Positions 2,952 to 9,176 of a DNA stretch of 64,000 nucleotides are shown one piece after another. A program made the position numbers and the translations under genes. Each line of letters opens with the position of its first letter. Within the stretch, counting starts at the first letter, position 1. The DNA is taken from NCBI GenBank assembly GCA_965238175.1, contig CBDEGZ010000003.1, forward strand, positions 704,001 to 768,000, read 5' to 3'. The notes under the pieces were generated by a model. It saw only the letters and a program-made list of their open reading frames with translations, had not been told where the DNA came from and searched no databases. Origin of the DNA: Gammaproteobacteria bacterium. Lineage in GTDB: Bacteria > Pseudomonadota > Gammaproteobacteria > CAJXQU01.

Positions 2952-3250
2952 GCTTGATATGACAAACTTAAGATCATATCCATTAAAATTATGGTTTGAC
3001 CACTTTTCTACAGCCAGTAAAATTACCTTACCTCCATTTTTTTCAGAAAACGACTCACCTTGGAAAATAGCGCTTTTCATCTCTTCGGATAGGGACTGAT
3101 TTAAGCTAGAGAGGCCTAAAATGTAGTGGCATAGTTAAATTGGCCATCTAATTTAGTCAACCCTAAAAAAACAAACTAACCCATAGAATATGTTAACAAA
3201 GACTCAGCAACAAGATGACCCAATCGACCAGCGATAATATAATGTAAGCT
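2946..3250 (-). pseudogene. Degenerate cassette ORF
   Basis: Open stretch ...SLSEEMKSAIFQGESF...YDLKFVISSI* stops inside the attC R'' box; upstream part is interrupted. Confidence 0.45.
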
Positions 3251-3327
3251 CCTTCTCTAGTCGAAATGCTGACCAAAAGCCGTGCTGGTGGTTTTCAACC
3301 GAGTTTGTTTGGGAATAACTAAATAAT

Positions 3328-3996
3328 ATGAAATACTTAATAATAATTTTTTGTTTTATAGCAAATGATATTTCAGCAGAAGAAAGCATTTGTTTTGGTA
3401 CAACTTCAAATGGAAGATTAGAAAAGGGAGTTCAATTACCTTCGGAAGGAAAAAATTATATTAGCTACAGTTCGCTTGCACGTTTCGCTGGACGAACCTA
3501 TGTACACTCTTCAGTAAGGTCGATAATAGTCAATGCATATAAAACACTAGAGAAAGAACAATCAGATAAAGTATACAAATATGCTGAAACAGGCACGAAA
3601 AATGGTGGGCAATTTAAACCGCATAAAACACATCAAAATGGACTCTCAGTTGATTTTATGACGCCAGTTACAAACATGAAAGGTAAGTCTGTTCATTTAC
3701 CAACAAATCCATTGAATAAATTGGGTTACAACATAGAGTTTGATTCTAAAGGACAGTATAAAAAACTACTGATTGATTACGATGCACTGGCAGCACATCT
3801 TGTTGCACTTCACAAAGAAGCAACATCTCAAGGGTATGATATTTGGCGTGTTATATTTGATCCAAAACTTCAACAATATTTATTTAAGACCATATATGCT
3901 GATTATCTTAAAAAGAATATAAGCTTTTCAAAAAAGAGATCTTGGGTAAGGCATGATGAACACTATCATGTTGATTTTGCAATACCGTGTCGATAG
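3328..3996 (+). CDS. Penicillin-insensitive murein endopeptidase (MepA/M74-like)
   Basis: Signal peptide; GTTSNGRL, PHKTHQNGLSVDF and HDEHYHV zinc-peptidase motifs. Confidence 0.8.
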   Translation: MKYLIIIFCFIANDISAEESICFGTTSNGRLEKGVQLPSEGKNYISYSSLARFAGRTYVHSSVRSIIVNAYKTLEKEQSDKVYKYAETGTKNGGQFKPHKTHQNGLSVDFMTPVTNMKGKSVHLPTNPLNKLGYNIEFDSKGQYKKLLIDYDALAAHLVALHKEATSQGYDIWRVIFDPKLQQYLFKTIYADYLKKNISFSKKRSWVRHDEHYHVDFAIPCR

Positions 3997-4214
3997 AAGT
4001 TCATTAAAAAATCGGGGAGCTTTTGCTCCCCTTTTTCTTGCTCCTGATTAAGATTGTTATCTTCCAAATCATCCAACCATTCATTGATGGCAGAATTTAC
4101 CGAAAGCCTCGACCGAACACGTTGTCCGGTTTTTGACTTTGTGTGAGCACCGCCTTTACGTAGTAGAGGTGATTGGGCTACAGGATTCCTGATAGTTATA
4201 TTTCGTCTTGGCAT
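3966..4214 (-). CDS. Small basic protein, candidate alternative ribosome-rescue factor
   Basis: Strong RBS AAGGAG; basic N-terminus RNPVAQSPLLRKGGAH; internal terminator before the stop codon. Confidence 0.6.
   Translation of the reverse strand: MPRRNITIRNPVAQSPLLRKGGAHTKSKTGQRVRSRLSVNSAINEWLDDLEDNNLNQEQEKGEQKLPDFLMNFYRHGIAKST
4006..4036. terminator. Bidirectional intrinsic terminator inside the 3966..4214 ORF
   Basis: AAAAAATC-GGGGAGC-TTTT-GCTCCCC-TTTTT; U-tracts on both strands. Confidence 0.75.
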
Positions 4215-4235
4215 AGTGTTGTCTCCTTATAGTCA

Positions 4236-4379
4236 GTACTCTAACCCGCAGGGCGCTACCGTAGTGCACCGAAACGACGTTGCAGTGCTTGAGAATAGAA
4301 CGCTATTCCCCGCGCACTGCGCCTTGATGCGAAACACCACGATAACGCTGAATACGTCAATATCAACTGGTTAGAGTAC
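4236..4379. repeat. ERIC-like palindromic miniature element
   Basis: Terminal IR GTACTCTAACC/GGTTAGAGTAC; nested stems GCAGTGC/GCACTGC and GAATAG/CTATTC. Confidence 0.7.
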
Positions 4380-5309
4380 AAGTTTGTACCATGCAACTTG
4401 TTTCAAGCTGCGCTTTTTTCGAATGAAGAAACGATCTTCTTTAATAAAGTCTGGATCTTTATCCGTCATTTGAAAACAGAATTTTCTAGGCAGATCTGAA
4501 TAGATTGAACGCGGTGGTGCTCCACCATCAATCTGCTTTATTTTCTGTCCAGTTTCATGGGTATGATAATAAATATTTTTGATCCCAAGTTCAGTATAGA
4601 TGAAGTCTATTGCCGCTGTCAGCATAGCTTCTGACCATAGATCGTAAAATGGTTTCAGTACTTTTTCAGCATAGGTAATAAAGTCTTCAGGCTTGCATCT
4701 ACACCAATCAAGGTACCAAGGAGCCAGACCTTTCTTTATACCATGTAAACAATATTTTACTCTACGCACCCAATCACTTTGTATTTCTTCGATTAATGCT
4801 TCACCACTGTCCAGATCAAAATCGATGCGTGCCCAGGCGAGTGTATCGCGGTATAGATCACGTTTTTCTCTATTCATTACTGGATGTTCACAATAGTTAA
4901 AAACGTAGTCGTCTTCCGGCCTAACCAACTTGTGATATGAGCGGTTATGCTTTTCCGAAAAATTCAGTTGAAGAACCAAGTTACAGCCTTTGCGTGTGGT
5001 TTGATAATTCCAACGATTGCTATCACCAAATTTATCAACCGTTAATACAAAAACTTGGCTGTTTTCCTTCCAGGCATGCTCAAATAATTCCGATTTTAGT
5101 TTGCCGTTGCCTAGAGAAGCCAGCAATCTTTTTATATCTTGCTGATTCAATAGGTGTTGATATTGTGATCGTTTGATCGCACTGACACTTTCTTTTTCTT
5201 TAGTTGCGTAAGCAAGCAGGAAAAAAGCGTACTGCCCTTTGAAGTAGTGAAATAATGTTCGTTCTTCTGGGAAGCAGGCAATAACTTCATCTAAGATCTC
5301 TTTCTTCAT
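4371..5309 (-). CDS. Hypothetical protein with LIEEIQSDW motif and GNAT-like C-terminus
   Basis: Long ORF in the rtcB operon; WSEAMLTAAIDFIYTELGIKNIYY...IYSDLPRKFCF resembles RimJ/L-type GNAT motifs (inference); start chosen at MKKEIL. Confidence 0.7.
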   Translation of the reverse strand: MKKEILDEVIACFPEERTLFHYFKGQYAFFLLAYATKEKESVSAIKRSQYQHLLNQQDIKRLLASLGNGKLKSELFEHAWKENSQVFVLTVDKFGDSNRWNYQTTRKGCNLVLQLNFSEKHNRSYHKLVRPEDDYVFNYCEHPVMNREKRDLYRDTLAWARIDFDLDSGEALIEEIQSDWVRRVKYCLHGIKKGLAPWYLDWCRCKPEDFITYAEKVLKPFYDLWSEAMLTAAIDFIYTELGIKNIYYHTHETGQKIKQIDGGAPPRSIYSDLPRKFCFQMTDKDPDFIKEDRFFIRKKRSLKQVAWYKLVL

Positions 5310-5382
5310 AATCGTAAGTCTCATTCAATTCTTGTAAAATAAATTTGTAGTTTTGTATTGTTAAGTCTTTATGAATAATCAT
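5287..5382 (-). CDS. 31-aa small ORF MIIHKDLTIQNYKFILQELNETYDYEERDLR
   Basis: AGGAGA RBS; overlaps the start of the next gene; below the ORF-track size cutoff. Confidence 0.5.
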   Translation of the reverse strand: MIIHKDLTIQNYKFILQELNETYDYEERDLR

Positions 5383-5407
5383 ATTTTTCTCCTATTTAAA
5401 AAAATAA

Positions 5408-6599
5408 TTAACCTTTAACGCATACGATTTGTTTTAACGTATGCACTATTTCTACTAGATCATTTTGATGTTCCATTACCTTGTCGATGTCTTTATAGGC
5501 CGCGGGAATTTCATCTATAATTCCTTTGTCTTTACGACATTCAACACCTTCTGTTTGTGTGATCACATCTTCTTCCACAAATTGACGTTTAGCTGCGCTA
5601 CGACTCATTTTTCGTCCAGCGCCATGCGAGCAAGAGTGGAATGATTGTGCATTTCCTTTTCCCCGAACAATAAACGATTTGGCTCCCATACTGCCGGAGA
5701 TAATCCCTAGTTCATCCAACCTAGCTTGGATAGCGCCTTTGCGTGTTAGAAAAACGCGCTCACCGAAATGGACTTCTTGAGAGACATAGTTGTGATGACA
5801 GTTGATCGCTTGTTTCGTAATACCAAACTTGGGTAATTTTTTACGTAATGTTTTGACGATCAAGTGCATCATTTCACGTCGGTTGGCCATTGCGTAATCC
5901 TGCGCCCATTCAACGGCTTGTACATAGTCATCAAAGTACTTTGAACCTTCCGTGAAATAGGCAAGGTCTTTATCTGGTAGATTTATATGATGTTGGCTCA
6001 TGTCTTTTTTTGCGAGAGCAATAAAATACTGGCCAATAACATTTCCTACACCGCGACTACCGGAATGCAACATGATCCAAACATCATCTTTTTCATCCAG
6101 ACACAGCTCGATAAAATGATTACCACCACCCAAAGTACCAATCTGTCGTATCCATGTTTGGTATGGTCTTTTCTGCATGGAATAGATTTTTTTATGCTTA
6201 CCGATAATTTGATCGAGCCCACCGCTCAGCGCACGAATAGTTGACTGACGCGCTCGATCAACTTTATGCATATTAAATCCTACCGGGATAGCTTCTTCGA
6301 TTGCCAGGCGAACCGCACGTAAATTATCCGGTAGATCTTTTGCCTTGATCGACAAACGTAAAGCATTCATGCCACAGCCGATATCCACACCGACAGCTGC
6401 AGGAATGATCGCTCCCTTAGTCGGAATGACCGAACCTACGGTTGCGCCTTTCCCCAAATGGACATCTGGCATTGCCGCAATATGACTATGGATAAAGGGC
6501 AATTGCGAAAGATTATAAAGCTGTTGCATTGTAGACGGCTCTACCTCGTCGGTGTAGATCTTGACGGGCACTTTACCTTTACTAATTGTTTTTTGAATA
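5408..6599 (-). CDS. rtcB: RNA ligase RtcB; start codon (7712) separated from the body by IS30
   Basis: MPDVH, GVDIGCG, GTLGGGNHF, HSGSRG, CHHNY, SCSHGAGR, YKDI and C-terminal VKG motifs. Confidence 0.95.
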
Positions 6600-7705
6600 T
6601 GGCGGTTTCAAGTTCCAAGTGCGCCATTAACGGCTTTCAAAAAGACCTCTTCCGGTGTTCGATAGTTGAGTGATTTACGAGGTCGTTGATTAATTAATGT
6701 AACGGCTTTTTTAATCTGCCTTTTTGTTACTTTACGGAAGTCCGTGCCTTTTGGAAAGTAACGTCGTAACAAGCCGTTGGTTTGCTCATTTGTACCACGC
6801 TCCCAAGGGGAGTATGGATGCGTAAAATAAACGGACATTTGTTTACTTTGTGCTATTTCATGATGCCGTACATTTTCACTACCATTGTCCAAAGTCAGTG
6901 TCTTACACAACGTCTCTGGAATGGATTTAAAACATTTCTTAGTGGCCATGGTAAACGTATCTGCACAGCCATCCATTAATTTCTCAGCAAGCAAAAAACG
7001 ACTCTTACGTTCGACATGCGTCGCTAATCCACCCCCGCCTTTGCATCCTTCAACCGTATCACCTTCCCAATCGCCCAGTCGGTTACGTCTGTCGACAACA
7101 GTAGGACGTTCTTCAATACAAACGCGGCCAGGGATATGGCTTCGCTTACCTGCTGGGCGCTGTCGTTTACGTTTGTTATGTTGAGAGCTCAAGCAAGTAT
7201 ATAACTCACCTCCATCAAACGCATCTCGATAGATCCACTGATAAATACATTCTGTACTGACGTACCTTTTAGTCGTTGTTCGTTTCAAATAACCGCTGAT
7301 GGCATCGGGCGACCAATGTTGATGCAATGTTGATGTAAGTGTTTCTGAACAAATTCGTAAAGAGATGCATTATCACGTTTTCGATAATGGCGAGCCTGTG
7401 TCTTACGAAGACAGGCTTGTCTATCAGCAAATTCGTTACAGTAAGATAAGTTTCGTAGGCGACCATTGCGTGTGACTTCTCGGGCAATGGTACTGTGGTG
7501 ACGATTGAGACGTCGTCCAATGTCTCGATAGCTTAATCCCCAGTGCAATAAATACATTAAGGTGTGACGTTCTTTTGCGCTAAAATGATGATAAGGCATG
7601 GCTTTTTCTCCAATAGAATAAGATCTCGACAATCTCATTCTAGCAAGACGGAAAGTCATGTCTTTTTAATCACGGCTAGTGGCGCGCTTTGGAGTTGAAA
7701 CCGCC
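6600..7705 (-). mobile_element. IS30-family insertion sequence
   Basis: IRs TGGCGGTTTCAAGTTCCAAGTGCGCCA / TGGCGCGCTTTGGAGTTGAAACCGCC; TA direct repeat at 6598-6599 and 7706-7707. Confidence 0.9.
6608..7599 (-). pseudogene. IS30 transposase, frameshifted
   Basis: HTH N-terminus (MPYHHFS..STIAREV) plus GDWEGDT, TLDNGSE, PWERGTNE; 11-bp tandem duplication at 7314-7335 shifts the frame. Confidence 0.9.
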
Positions 7706-8137
7706 TAGGCATAACTGTTTACCTCGCTTTGTCCCTGCAGCAGATAAAATTTCAGTGCAGGCACACGTTTTCGTTCAATAGATTTCGCAATCGCAGAACG
7801 AAGATAGCCCTGTATTGCGTGTAGTTTATTTATTACCTGATCCTTGTTTACCACCTGATCTACATTGATCTGACGAATAGATACAAAAAGGAATTGACCT
7901 TCTTCATTTGACTTGACAGCAACGACTTCCAAGTTCTGCAGCATTGGATCATGAAGTCCTCCAGATAAAACGATAGACAATGTTTTTCTCGCCACAGTAC
8001 ATAGTTGTCGGCTTTTATGGCTACTGTTTTTTTATATCTGACGCTCTAGCTAGATAACGTGGATCAACACCGTCTTCAGGGCCGAATTCATCACATAATT
8101 TTTTGGCTCCTATGAGCCAGTTTTTTGATTGTTTCAT
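7705..8137 (-). pseudogene. Atypical ribosome-binding factor A-like protein, frameshifted at an A7 run
   Basis: Deleting one A at 8027-8033 gives MKQSKN..GPEDGVDPRY..SRQLCTVARKTLSIVLSG..DP..GYLRSAIAKSIERKRVPALKF (RbfA C-terminal signature). Confidence 0.75.
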
Positions 8138-8142
8138 TTAAA

Positions 8143-8266
8143 CTCCTACCGAAAAAATGAACGGCCTTAAAAGCAAACGAAATAGCTTGCAGCCAAAAAT
8201 TTCAGCAAATATAAAAAGTATTAAGTAGGAGCCCGGTCCAGACGACCGGTAAAAAGTTACCGGAAG
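8143..8266 (-). promoter_or_regulatory. Putative translational attenuator
   Basis: Mutually exclusive hairpins CCGGTAA/TTACCGG and CCGGTC/GACCGG; anti-SD CTCCTAC (8225-8231) complementary to SD GTAGGAG (8143-8149). Confidence 0.55.
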
Positions 8267-8307
8267 GTAAGAGACACGAGGCTCATGAGTGTTCGATTTA
8301 AAATCAT
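8257..8307 (-). CDS. 16-aa leader peptide MILNRTLMSLVSLTFR
   Basis: AGGAGG RBS; stop codon sits in hairpin CCGGTAA/TTACCGG. Confidence 0.6.
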   Translation of the reverse strand: MILNRTLMSLVSLTFR

Positions 8308-8360
8308 TCAGTTCCTCCTGTTGTTTGGCCTGTTAATTGGTAGTTAAAAGATGGAGCGGG

Positions 8361-8389
8361 AATCTACACCTTAATTGTTTTTCTGTCAA
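8361..8389 (-). promoter_or_regulatory. Sigma70 promoter
   Basis: TTGACA-17 bp-TAGATT. Confidence 0.7.
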
Positions 8390-8732
8390 TACTTAATCGG
8401 CGATGGGTATGAAATCAATCTTATTTACTCATCGAAAGTTAAATCTTAAGAGTTCTAGATCAACTTATTTAGATATTGCACATAAAAATCATCCGATAAT
8501 TGATAAACTTATTAATAAGCATTAATTTCGAAAAAATATTGGTTTAAAGTCTTAAGTTTCCGAGTATGTTGTTTATCAAGATCTAAATACTCAGATCTCA
8601 AAAAAGCACACCATCTTAGGCTAGAGAGTTGGGAAACCAGAGTGAATATGAAAGGGATGAATCAAATCAATGCACCATTTCAGAGGTCGAGTCGACCTTT
8701 TTATATTAGAACTAATAGAAAATATGACAATA

Positions 8733-9176
8733 ATGAAGAATTCTGTAATATTATTTTTGCTAACTTTAGTAGCAGCCTGCGCAACAGGTTCCAAGTTTAT
8801 TGCATCTGAAGATCCAACGGATAGTACTGCTTTAGTTTATATTTACAGACCTTCAAACTTTACAAATGCACTAATAAATCCTGAAATCATAATAGATAAA
8901 AACAACTATGTGAAAATAACAAATGGCGGATATGTATTTACATATCTAGAGGAAGGCGAATATCAAGTGGGTGTGGATTTTGGTGATAAAAAAGGTGAGA
9001 AGGAAAAGTCATTTAAATTTGAAAATGGTAAAACTTATTTCATTAAAGTGACGACAGGAAGAAAAGCTTTAGCATATCCTTACACGCTTGTTTATTTTAA
9101 GCTGGATAACATGGATACGGTATTAGGACAAAGCGAAATAATAGAAACAAGACTGCTGAGTGAAATAAAGCATTAG
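8733..9176 (+). CDS. DUF2846-like lipoprotein
   Basis: Lipobox LVAAC; ALVYIYRP, NGGYV, GKTYFIK motifs. Confidence 0.75.
   Translation: MKNSVILFLLTLVAACATGSKFIASEDPTDSTALVYIYRPSNFTNALINPEIIIDKNNYVKITNGGYVFTYLEEGEYQVGVDFGDKKGEKEKSFKFENGKTYFIKVTTGRKALAYPYTLVYFKLDNMDTVLGQSEIIETRLLSEIKH

Follow-up and report, generated by a model that had tools for sequence, protein, structure and literature searches.

The locus described here raises the question of whether a bacterial gene that carries a transcription terminator ahead of its own stop codon does so as a means of regulation, or simply because its 3′ end lies where two genes converge. The gene is a small open reading frame (ORF) on the minus strand of a 64,000-nucleotide stretch of a gammaproteobacterial genome (GenBank assembly GCA_965238175.1, contig CBDEGZ010000003.1, positions 704,001 to 768,000 of the forward strand; hereafter the window), within which a GC-rich hairpin followed by a T-tract interrupts the coding region. 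An earlier note, made from the letters of the window alone, had proposed that this ORF encodes a new ribosome-rescue factor of the ArfA/BrfA type, translated from an mRNA without a stop codon. To our knowledge, ArfA and BrfA are the only protein families that are purposely made from stop-less mRNAs, their abundance serving as a readout of how trans-translation is faring. Our analysis points to a new, unnamed protein family with an ArfA/BrfA-like regulatory architecture, which probably acts on ribosomes; by analogy with those two systems, production of the small protein is probably limited to times at which the cell's main route of ribosome rescue is overloaded.

The features of the small ORF in the window (Table 1) are largely as the earlier note had read them: a strong ribosome-binding site precedes the ATG, the N-terminal half is rich in lysine and arginine (10 K/R and no D/E in residues 1–40, SPLLRKGGAH included), and a 7-bp GC hairpin with its U-tract lies inside the coding region, the distance from the end of the stem to the first base of the stop codon (TGA, 3966–3968) being 45 nt. 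A 71-nt fold has a free energy of −19.2 kcal/mol (z = −3.3), and none of 200 shuffled sequences folds equally well. On the plus strand the hairpin is followed by TTTTTCTTGC; it has an A-run and a T-run at its flanks and was called terminator-like on both strands. The element sits 18 nt past the stop codon of a convergent M74 peptidase-like gene, the end of which overlaps the tail of the small ORF by 31 nt. The window locus taken alone would be ambiguous, as the hairpin might serve this peptidase gene and nothing else. A terminator scan over 4 kb, which found four terminator-like sites where 3.1 are expected from shuffled sequences, by itself proves little, and a search of Rfam with positions 3000–9000 gave sub-threshold matches only (PrrB_RsmZ, 23 bits against a threshold of 44, in the hairpin region, and snoR66), which we take as chance.

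Homologous loci were collected by scanning species-representative genomes; 102 loci were confirmed and 80 kept, and the counts given here refer to these 80 together with the window (81 loci). Of the 81, 21 have a hairpin with a T-tract within the ORF and two more (L009 and L036) have one that overlaps the stop codon, making 23 in total. In the window and in L001–L008, L010, L012 and L014–L018 the in-ORF hairpin is located 131–163 nt past the start of the conserved N-terminal motif of the protein; other clades have unrelated hairpins at this place (L015, L030–L033 and L056), those within the ORFs of L030–L033 and L056 starting 108–156 nt past the motif start. A weak 6-bp match inside L042 was left out of the count, since a strong terminator directly follows the stop codon of that ORF. 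With the exception of L015, which has a different stem, the 16 hairpin loci examined in detail have a common core, which is GGGGAGC/GCTCCCC or a variant thereof. Across the homologues this core starts at codon position 1, 2 or 3 and is read as GExxLP, GGANAPP or KGSxxSP; as it is translated in all three frames, it is the RNA and not the peptide that is conserved, and selection on the peptide offers no explanation. Covariation over these 16 sequences supports this: 90.6% of the cells are paired and six of the ten pairs have changed on both sides, values that none of 500 shuffles reaches, with slid registers giving 43–61% pairing.

The protein sequences tell of the same boundary. A word-index search gave 33 unnamed close homologues of 67–104 residues, which give a good alignment between residue 1 and a conserved proline (P67) and have nothing in common beyond it, pairwise identity being 65% up to P67 and 6.9% after, over tails of 4–37 residues. 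No in-frame stop codon stands ahead of the hairpin in any of the 21 loci with an in-ORF hairpin, nor at the corresponding place in any of these 33 homologues, and the stop codons past an in-ORF hairpin fall 1 to 258 nt after the stem. A translated hairpin signature, defined by strict patterns, is also seen in 45 of 167 motif-bearing representative proteins, and further representatives show, by eye, palindromic codons and then F-rich residues. The comparative sequence data place the in-ORF hairpin arrangement far beyond chance: they show that the element exists, that it has been kept as RNA within the reading frame, and that translation past it is not under selection.

We infer, on good grounds, that transcripts of the hairpin-bearing genes end at the in-ORF terminator and lack a stop codon. 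In the clade of the window most transcripts would end at about codon 69. Ribosomes reaching such a nonstop end would be resolved by tmRNA–SmpB and the product tagged for degradation, as is documented for arfA and brfA, and the small protein would build up only when trans-translation is saturated or disabled. Its target might then be ribosomes that have stalled or been damaged, with the 30S subunit as the probable site and its conserved basic N-terminal part as the means of contact, and it would so provide the rescue or recognition step of a repair module that comprises an RbfA-like protein and the RNA ligase RtcB; it is the genomic context that points to these last two steps. The genome to which the window belongs encodes both tmRNA (218 bits) and SmpB. 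Taken as a whole, a small protein gated by trans-translation and acting on ribosomes within an RbfA-like/RtcB module is a proposal that we put forward tentatively, and which we would place slightly below the even mark.

The part of the protein that is predicted to be translated consists of the conserved N-terminal motif (residues 9–24), followed by a basic stretch and then by a long helix, spanning residues 28–60, that turns acidic; residues 41–70 contain nine D/E and two K, which gives the final 30 translated residues a net acidic charge, and there is no GGQ sequence. The motif, RNPVAxSPLLRKGGxH, is almost invariant, and nine residues show no variation at all among 79 sequences (A13, S15, P16, L17, K20, G21, G22, H24 and R32). 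An AlphaFold2 model built with these 79 sequences has short turns over the motif and a single long helix at 28–60, with a pLDDT of 85–96 at residues 21–50. The kept loci are all from Gamma- and Betaproteobacteria, the carriers being Thiodiazotropha, Methylococcaceae, Thiomargarita, Albibeggiatoa, Chromatiaceae, Rariloculaceae, Casimicrobiaceae, Nitrosomonas and Arenicella. When 1.84 billion representatives were searched with the family profile, 984 clusters passed E ≤ 1e-3, and 267 still passed at E ≤ 1e-10, with protein lengths of 46–165 residues among the 150 matches listed. The family is large and under strong purifying selection.

Searches for a name gave little. Scans of the small protein against Pfam and NCBIfam found no family model, the best hits being noise (RpoY, E = 0.21; PRK13667, E = 0.12); the ESM Atlas returned unnamed clusters and DUF7230 at a score of 0.82, below the threshold for a lead; a cluster look-up of ten homologues had 'hypothetical protein' as its sole name; and the family profile had no match among PDB chain sequences at E ≤ 10. 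No paper on the family was present among the literature matches listed, a search with supplements outside its scope, and the full-text matches listed for motif strings were to a shorter string only, in articles with titles on antimicrobial peptides, none of these listed matches being to SPLLRK.

As the earlier note had observed, the small gene stands at the end of an rtcB operon: it is the last of the co-directional row rtcB, 317-residue protein, small gene, and the link to rtcB recurs, with rtcB adjoining the small gene in 36 of the 81 loci according to clustering of the neighbouring ORFs. In 28 loci the next gene upstream of the small gene codes for a protein of 312–335 residues, the gap being about 10 nt in 27 of them, and an RbfA-like gene (140–150 residues) precedes rtcB in 17 of the 81. 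Other arrangements are found in five Chromatiaceae loci, where the small gene is just upstream of rtcB, and in six loci where it comes straight after rtcB with no GNAT-fold gene between. The RtcB of the window is 67–87% identical to the RtcB of 24 related operons across lineages; identity at this level over distant lineages, together with the patchy occurrence of the small gene within the genus, suggests horizontal movement of the cassette. From context, an invariant basic motif kept across two classes, an RbfA paralogue expected to bind the 30S subunit and an RNA ligase suggest a link between the small protein and the ribosome.

The 317-residue protein of the window has no match in Pfam. With its AlphaFold2 model (pLDDT 84) as query, the top 50 chains of a wide structural search are all GNAT (Z 7.3–9.0, 108–147 residues aligned, in a search where a Z of 7–8 is common); the best E-value from Foldseek is 0.03. 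Its family has many invariant residues, for example H147, P148, R159, E179, E180, Q182 and D184, and always lies between rtcB and the small gene. A role for the small protein as an antitoxin-like partner of the GNAT-fold protein was considered and set aside, because the GNAT-fold gene is absent both from the six loci in which rtcB is directly followed by the small gene and from the five in which the small gene precedes rtcB, as well as from every locus without rtcB for which an upstream flank is available. A complex prediction for RtcB with residues 1–66 of the small protein, both given as alignments, returned scores of 0.00 and 0.00 and is not used as evidence.

The remaining parts of the operon in the window are less regular (Table 1), with the rtcB, GNAT-fold and small ORFs intact. 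The match of the RbfA-like gene to PF02033 (7705–7995, minus strand) reaches 38.0 bits where the cut-off is 34.7 bits; the homologue in L013 falls just below this cut-off at 32.8. When read with a one-base shift, the gene aligns over its full length to intact homologues, and its split could be that of a pseudogene, or could stem from a sequencing error or slippage. The repeat that makes up the spacer ahead of the small gene has four further chromosomal copies (73–85% identity over 86–131 nt; 51% GC against 40% for the genome) and no match to an Rfam family. It contains a weak promoter-like site (4366..4339, minus strand, 9/12 matches) and may be a small mobile or structured element; it may also provide a promoter for the small gene.

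Table 1. The small ORF, its terminator and the surrounding genes, in window positions
Feature	Position	Strand	Remarks
Convergent M74 (MepA-like) peptidase gene	3328..3996	plus	Pfam Peptidase_M74, E 5.4e-12; outside the system; terminator common to both genes
Small ORF	3966..4214	minus	82 residues + TGA; residues from about 70 onward probably untranslated on the terminated transcript
T-tract GATTTTTTAA after the hairpin	4004..4013	minus	covers small-ORF codons 68–71
Predicted translated part of the nonstop mRNA	4005..4214	minus	about 68–70 codons; 3′ end placed from the terminator position
Intrinsic-terminator hairpin GGGGAGC-AAAA-GCTCCCC	4014..4031	bidirectional	7 bp (6 GC pairs), 4-nt loop; small-ORF codons 62–67
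Spacer of 157 nt, dispersed repeat	4215..4371	.	between the 317-residue gene and the small gene; about 10 nt in other loci
Shine-Dalgarno sequence AAGGAGA	4222..4228	minus	7 nt ahead of the ATG; read from the sequence
317-residue protein, unnamed family	4371..5324	minus	predicted GNAT-like fold in residues ~90–317; directly upstream of the small gene
RtcB RNA ligase	5408..6571	minus	PF01139, E 2.8e-130
Transposase, two overlapping ORFs (HTH_38 + rve)	6608..7659	minus	inserted between the RbfA-like gene and rtcB
RbfA-like gene, first of the conserved operon	7705..8137	minus	frameshift at an A-run near 8030 (8020–8040)

Several observations weigh against a gated protein acting on ribosomes. The hairpin in the window has a trivial reason to be there, namely termination of the convergent peptidase gene. 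It lies about 200 nt into the small ORF, and terminators late in a coding region are described as repressible by translating ribosomes (PMC4824070). A hairpin inside the ORF or at the stop is lacking in 58 of the 81 loci, including 19 of the 36 that are linked to rtcB, and all the hemW/chaC-flanked loci and ABC binding-protein loci are without one and have ordinary-looking stops. Among six other species of the window's genus only one carries the small gene; the operon looks decayed, with a frameshifted RbfA-like gene, a transposase and a repeat insertion; and the genome has an ArfB-like gene with a GGQ sequence and a basic tail. As the hairpin is missing from 58 of the 81 loci, the nonstop design marks a large clade and not the whole family, and is not essential. 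The interpretation advanced in the earlier note stands in part: an in-frame hairpin conserved as RNA, a tail without conservation and the recurrent link to rtcB make the arfA/brfA-like nonstop logic well founded, and the ordinary stops of about two thirds of the loci examined are among the points that do not favour a rescue factor. Alternatively, the hairpin might have no regulatory meaning and merely end the operon and the convergent gene, the end of the ORF having drifted across it, with readthrough by coupled ribosomes to the next stop or release by ArfB. The product would then be made constitutively, be it to assist RtcB or the GNAT-fold protein as a cofactor, to serve either of them as a substrate, or to bind nucleic acids in general. 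This is rather unlikely in our judgement. Most family members end at an ordinary stop, which in L021, L024, L042 and L009 falls within a terminator or right next to one, and this does suggest a continuum; ribosomes can repress terminators inside ORFs, the GNAT-fold gene some 10 nt upstream suggests coupled synthesis, and a convergent neighbour is found at 16 of the 23 hairpin loci. Against it, stops ahead of the hairpin are entirely lacking, the hairpin keeps its position some 135–160 nt past the motif across different stems and reading frames, and a cell that had tmRNA tag so well conserved a protein all the time would be wasting it, were the tagging not a gate. In the other seven of the 23 (L001, L006, L009, L010, L017, L033 and L036) the next downstream ORF is co-directional, neighbour direction having been scored on raw ORFs of at least 100 residues and not on annotated genes, with many loci ending at contig ends; a check proposed with the original prediction, that the in-frame hairpin be kept where there is no convergent neighbour, hence came out in its favour. 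The same seven loci could be cited for a regulatory 3′ ORF, in which translation of the small ORF sets the balance of termination and read-through for downstream or antisense genes, much like an attenuator, and the peptide itself is of minor importance; the terminator does lie inside a translated frame, where its efficiency depends on the coupling of ribosome and polymerase (PMC4824070). The extreme conservation of the peptide, the ordinary stops in many genomes and the lack of conservation of the downstream genes make this explanation highly improbable.

It may also be asked whether the small protein is a classical ArfA/BrfA-type factor, which detects that the mRNA channel of a nonstop ribosome is vacant and brings in RF1 or RF2 for peptide release, its link to rtcB being incidental. 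The nonstop architecture is that of arfA and brfA, the protein is small, basic and without GGQ, its RKGGxHxKSK sequence is reminiscent of the basic motifs of ArfT and ArfA, and at six of the 23 hairpin loci the gene stands by itself, with unrelated genes around it and without rtcB, which recalls arfA with its in-ORF terminator. Two full-length release factors are encoded in the genome, where three RF-1 domain genes in total were found, all away from the operon. ArfA was not found in the window's genome, nor in 35 other genomes that carry the small-protein family; since it was found in only two of 201 genomes sampled across the class, this absence carries little weight, and an ArfB-like gene is at hand. 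(A search with one ArfA sequence returned that sequence alone, and a second genome search added two ArfA loci.) More directly against a classical factor, the motif is conserved far beyond the needs of a basic tail, and the N-terminal place of the basic segment, with an acidic C-terminus, is unlike all known mRNA-channel tails. According to the cited passages of PMC6881298, the basic tails of ArfA, BrfA, SmpB and ArfB are C-terminal; the small protein is basic N-terminally and acidic C-terminally, a reversed layout. No similarity to ArfA was found in Pfam or NCBIfam at E ≤ 1, the hhalign probability being 0.1% (E = 0.42, with a thin ArfA alignment of four sequences), nor to BrfA, the search of PDB having been empty. 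Both the reversed charge layout and the lack of similarity count against a rescue role as well as against family membership, and lead us to file the small proteins as a new family and not as members of ArfA or BrfA. A classical factor is, in our view, unlikely. As a separate matter, one contig of the same genome assembly (C1, 10,967 bases) has a GC content of 55.8% against 40.4% for the chromosome and may be a foreign plasmid or a contaminant.

The relatives without an in-ORF hairpin are themselves of distinct kinds. Loci of the Casimicrobiaceae type (rph–rdgB–hemW–small gene–chaC) encode proteins of 54 residues, a conserved length, and in those of the Rariloculaceae type an ABC binding-protein gene comes next after the small gene. 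Viewed by eye, a tryptophan-acidic stretch (DEW..EL.E, DWREELEFER) follows the basic part in most members linked to rtcB but not in the other two context groups. Three Albibeggiatoa loci terminate in a conserved ...WHRR or ...WRKR. In these loci (L035, L037 and L040) the ordinary stop overlaps a Shine-Dalgarno-like GGAGG followed by an ATG, and a short ORF rich in cysteine and lysine opens just after the stop of the small gene, which may be an extra partner gene.

The stop codon of L021 lies within the loop of a terminator, and in L024 and L042 a terminator directly follows the stop. The hairpin of L011 has a loop of 9 nt, and the ORF there stops 9–12 nt past the stem. Together with L009, these loci look intermediate between the ordinary-stop and nonstop forms, their stop being in the hairpin, against it, or no more than about 12 nt past it. 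The same-genus relative L091 (identical in sequence to L022) has an 11-bp in-ORF hairpin without an adjacent T-tract.

If the small protein is indeed gated in this way, it would represent a third, unrelated and widespread family made from nonstop mRNAs, and would indicate that this regulatory trick has evolved repeatedly. It would also supply a new candidate rescue factor for Gamma- and Betaproteobacteria, sulfur oxidisers and methanotrophs among them, most of which gave no ArfA when searched (2 of 201 class genomes), and its conserved association with RtcB and an RbfA paralogue suggests that ribosome rescue may be connected with rRNA repair.

Among the known systems, the gene is closest in layout to brfA and arfA. 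The cited passages of PMC6881298 describe a rho-independent terminator within the coding region of brfA and a product kept down by trans-translation. As with BrfA, we find a small protein without GGQ and a predicted rho-independent terminator inside the ORF, ahead of the stop, the product of about 69 residues predicted here comparing with about 62 for BrfA. BrfA is found in Firmicutes and without an rtcB context, whereas the present family is one of Gamma- and Betaproteobacteria; moreover, the N-terminal helices of BrfA contact RF2 and its basic C-terminal tail probes the mRNA channel, whereas a single long helix with an acidic end is predicted here by modelling. ArfA (PF03889), which is regulated by tmRNA and is made from a nonstop mRNA (as given in the cited passages of PMC6299226), is likewise a small basic protein of Proteobacteria with an mRNA truncated inside the ORF, and also occurs in stand-alone genes; the interruption of the ORF by a terminator or RNase III site before its stop codon that characterises arfA has its putative counterpart here in a conserved sequence element. 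The KGKGS motif in ArfA's C-terminal tail, described in the same passages, is absent from the small protein, the motif of which is N-terminal and much more strictly conserved. ArfT of Francisella is also a small protein, and its basic motif as quoted there, KKGGSTNKK, resembles RKGGxHxKSK when the two are compared by eye. ArfT differs in its length of 40 residues, in having its motif near the C-terminus and, according to those passages, in lacking an in-ORF terminator or an RNase III site.

The operon in turn invites comparison with PrfH–RtcB2, which carries out rescue and then repair of ribosomes cut by ribotoxins (PMC12829566). The operon described here has no release-factor homologue, its RtcB being accompanied by the RbfA-like, GNAT-fold and small proteins, and the RtcB of the window scores 148 bits against the cut-off of 271.8 for the PrfH-paired type (TIGR03073). 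A more specific version of our proposal would make the small protein the founder of a fourth, unrelated class of rescue factor, gated by nonstop mRNA and specialised for ribosomes with ribotoxin-cut 16S rRNA: the N-terminal motif would recognise the ribosome, peptide release or subunit splitting would follow, and the 30S subunit would be handed to the RbfA-like chaperone and RtcB for religation. This small-protein counterpart of PrfH–RtcB2 is improbable in such detail. What the two systems share is a translation-rescue component (here a candidate one) beside an RtcB ligase, and the RbfA-like gene in the present operon suggests the same logic of rescue coupled to repair.

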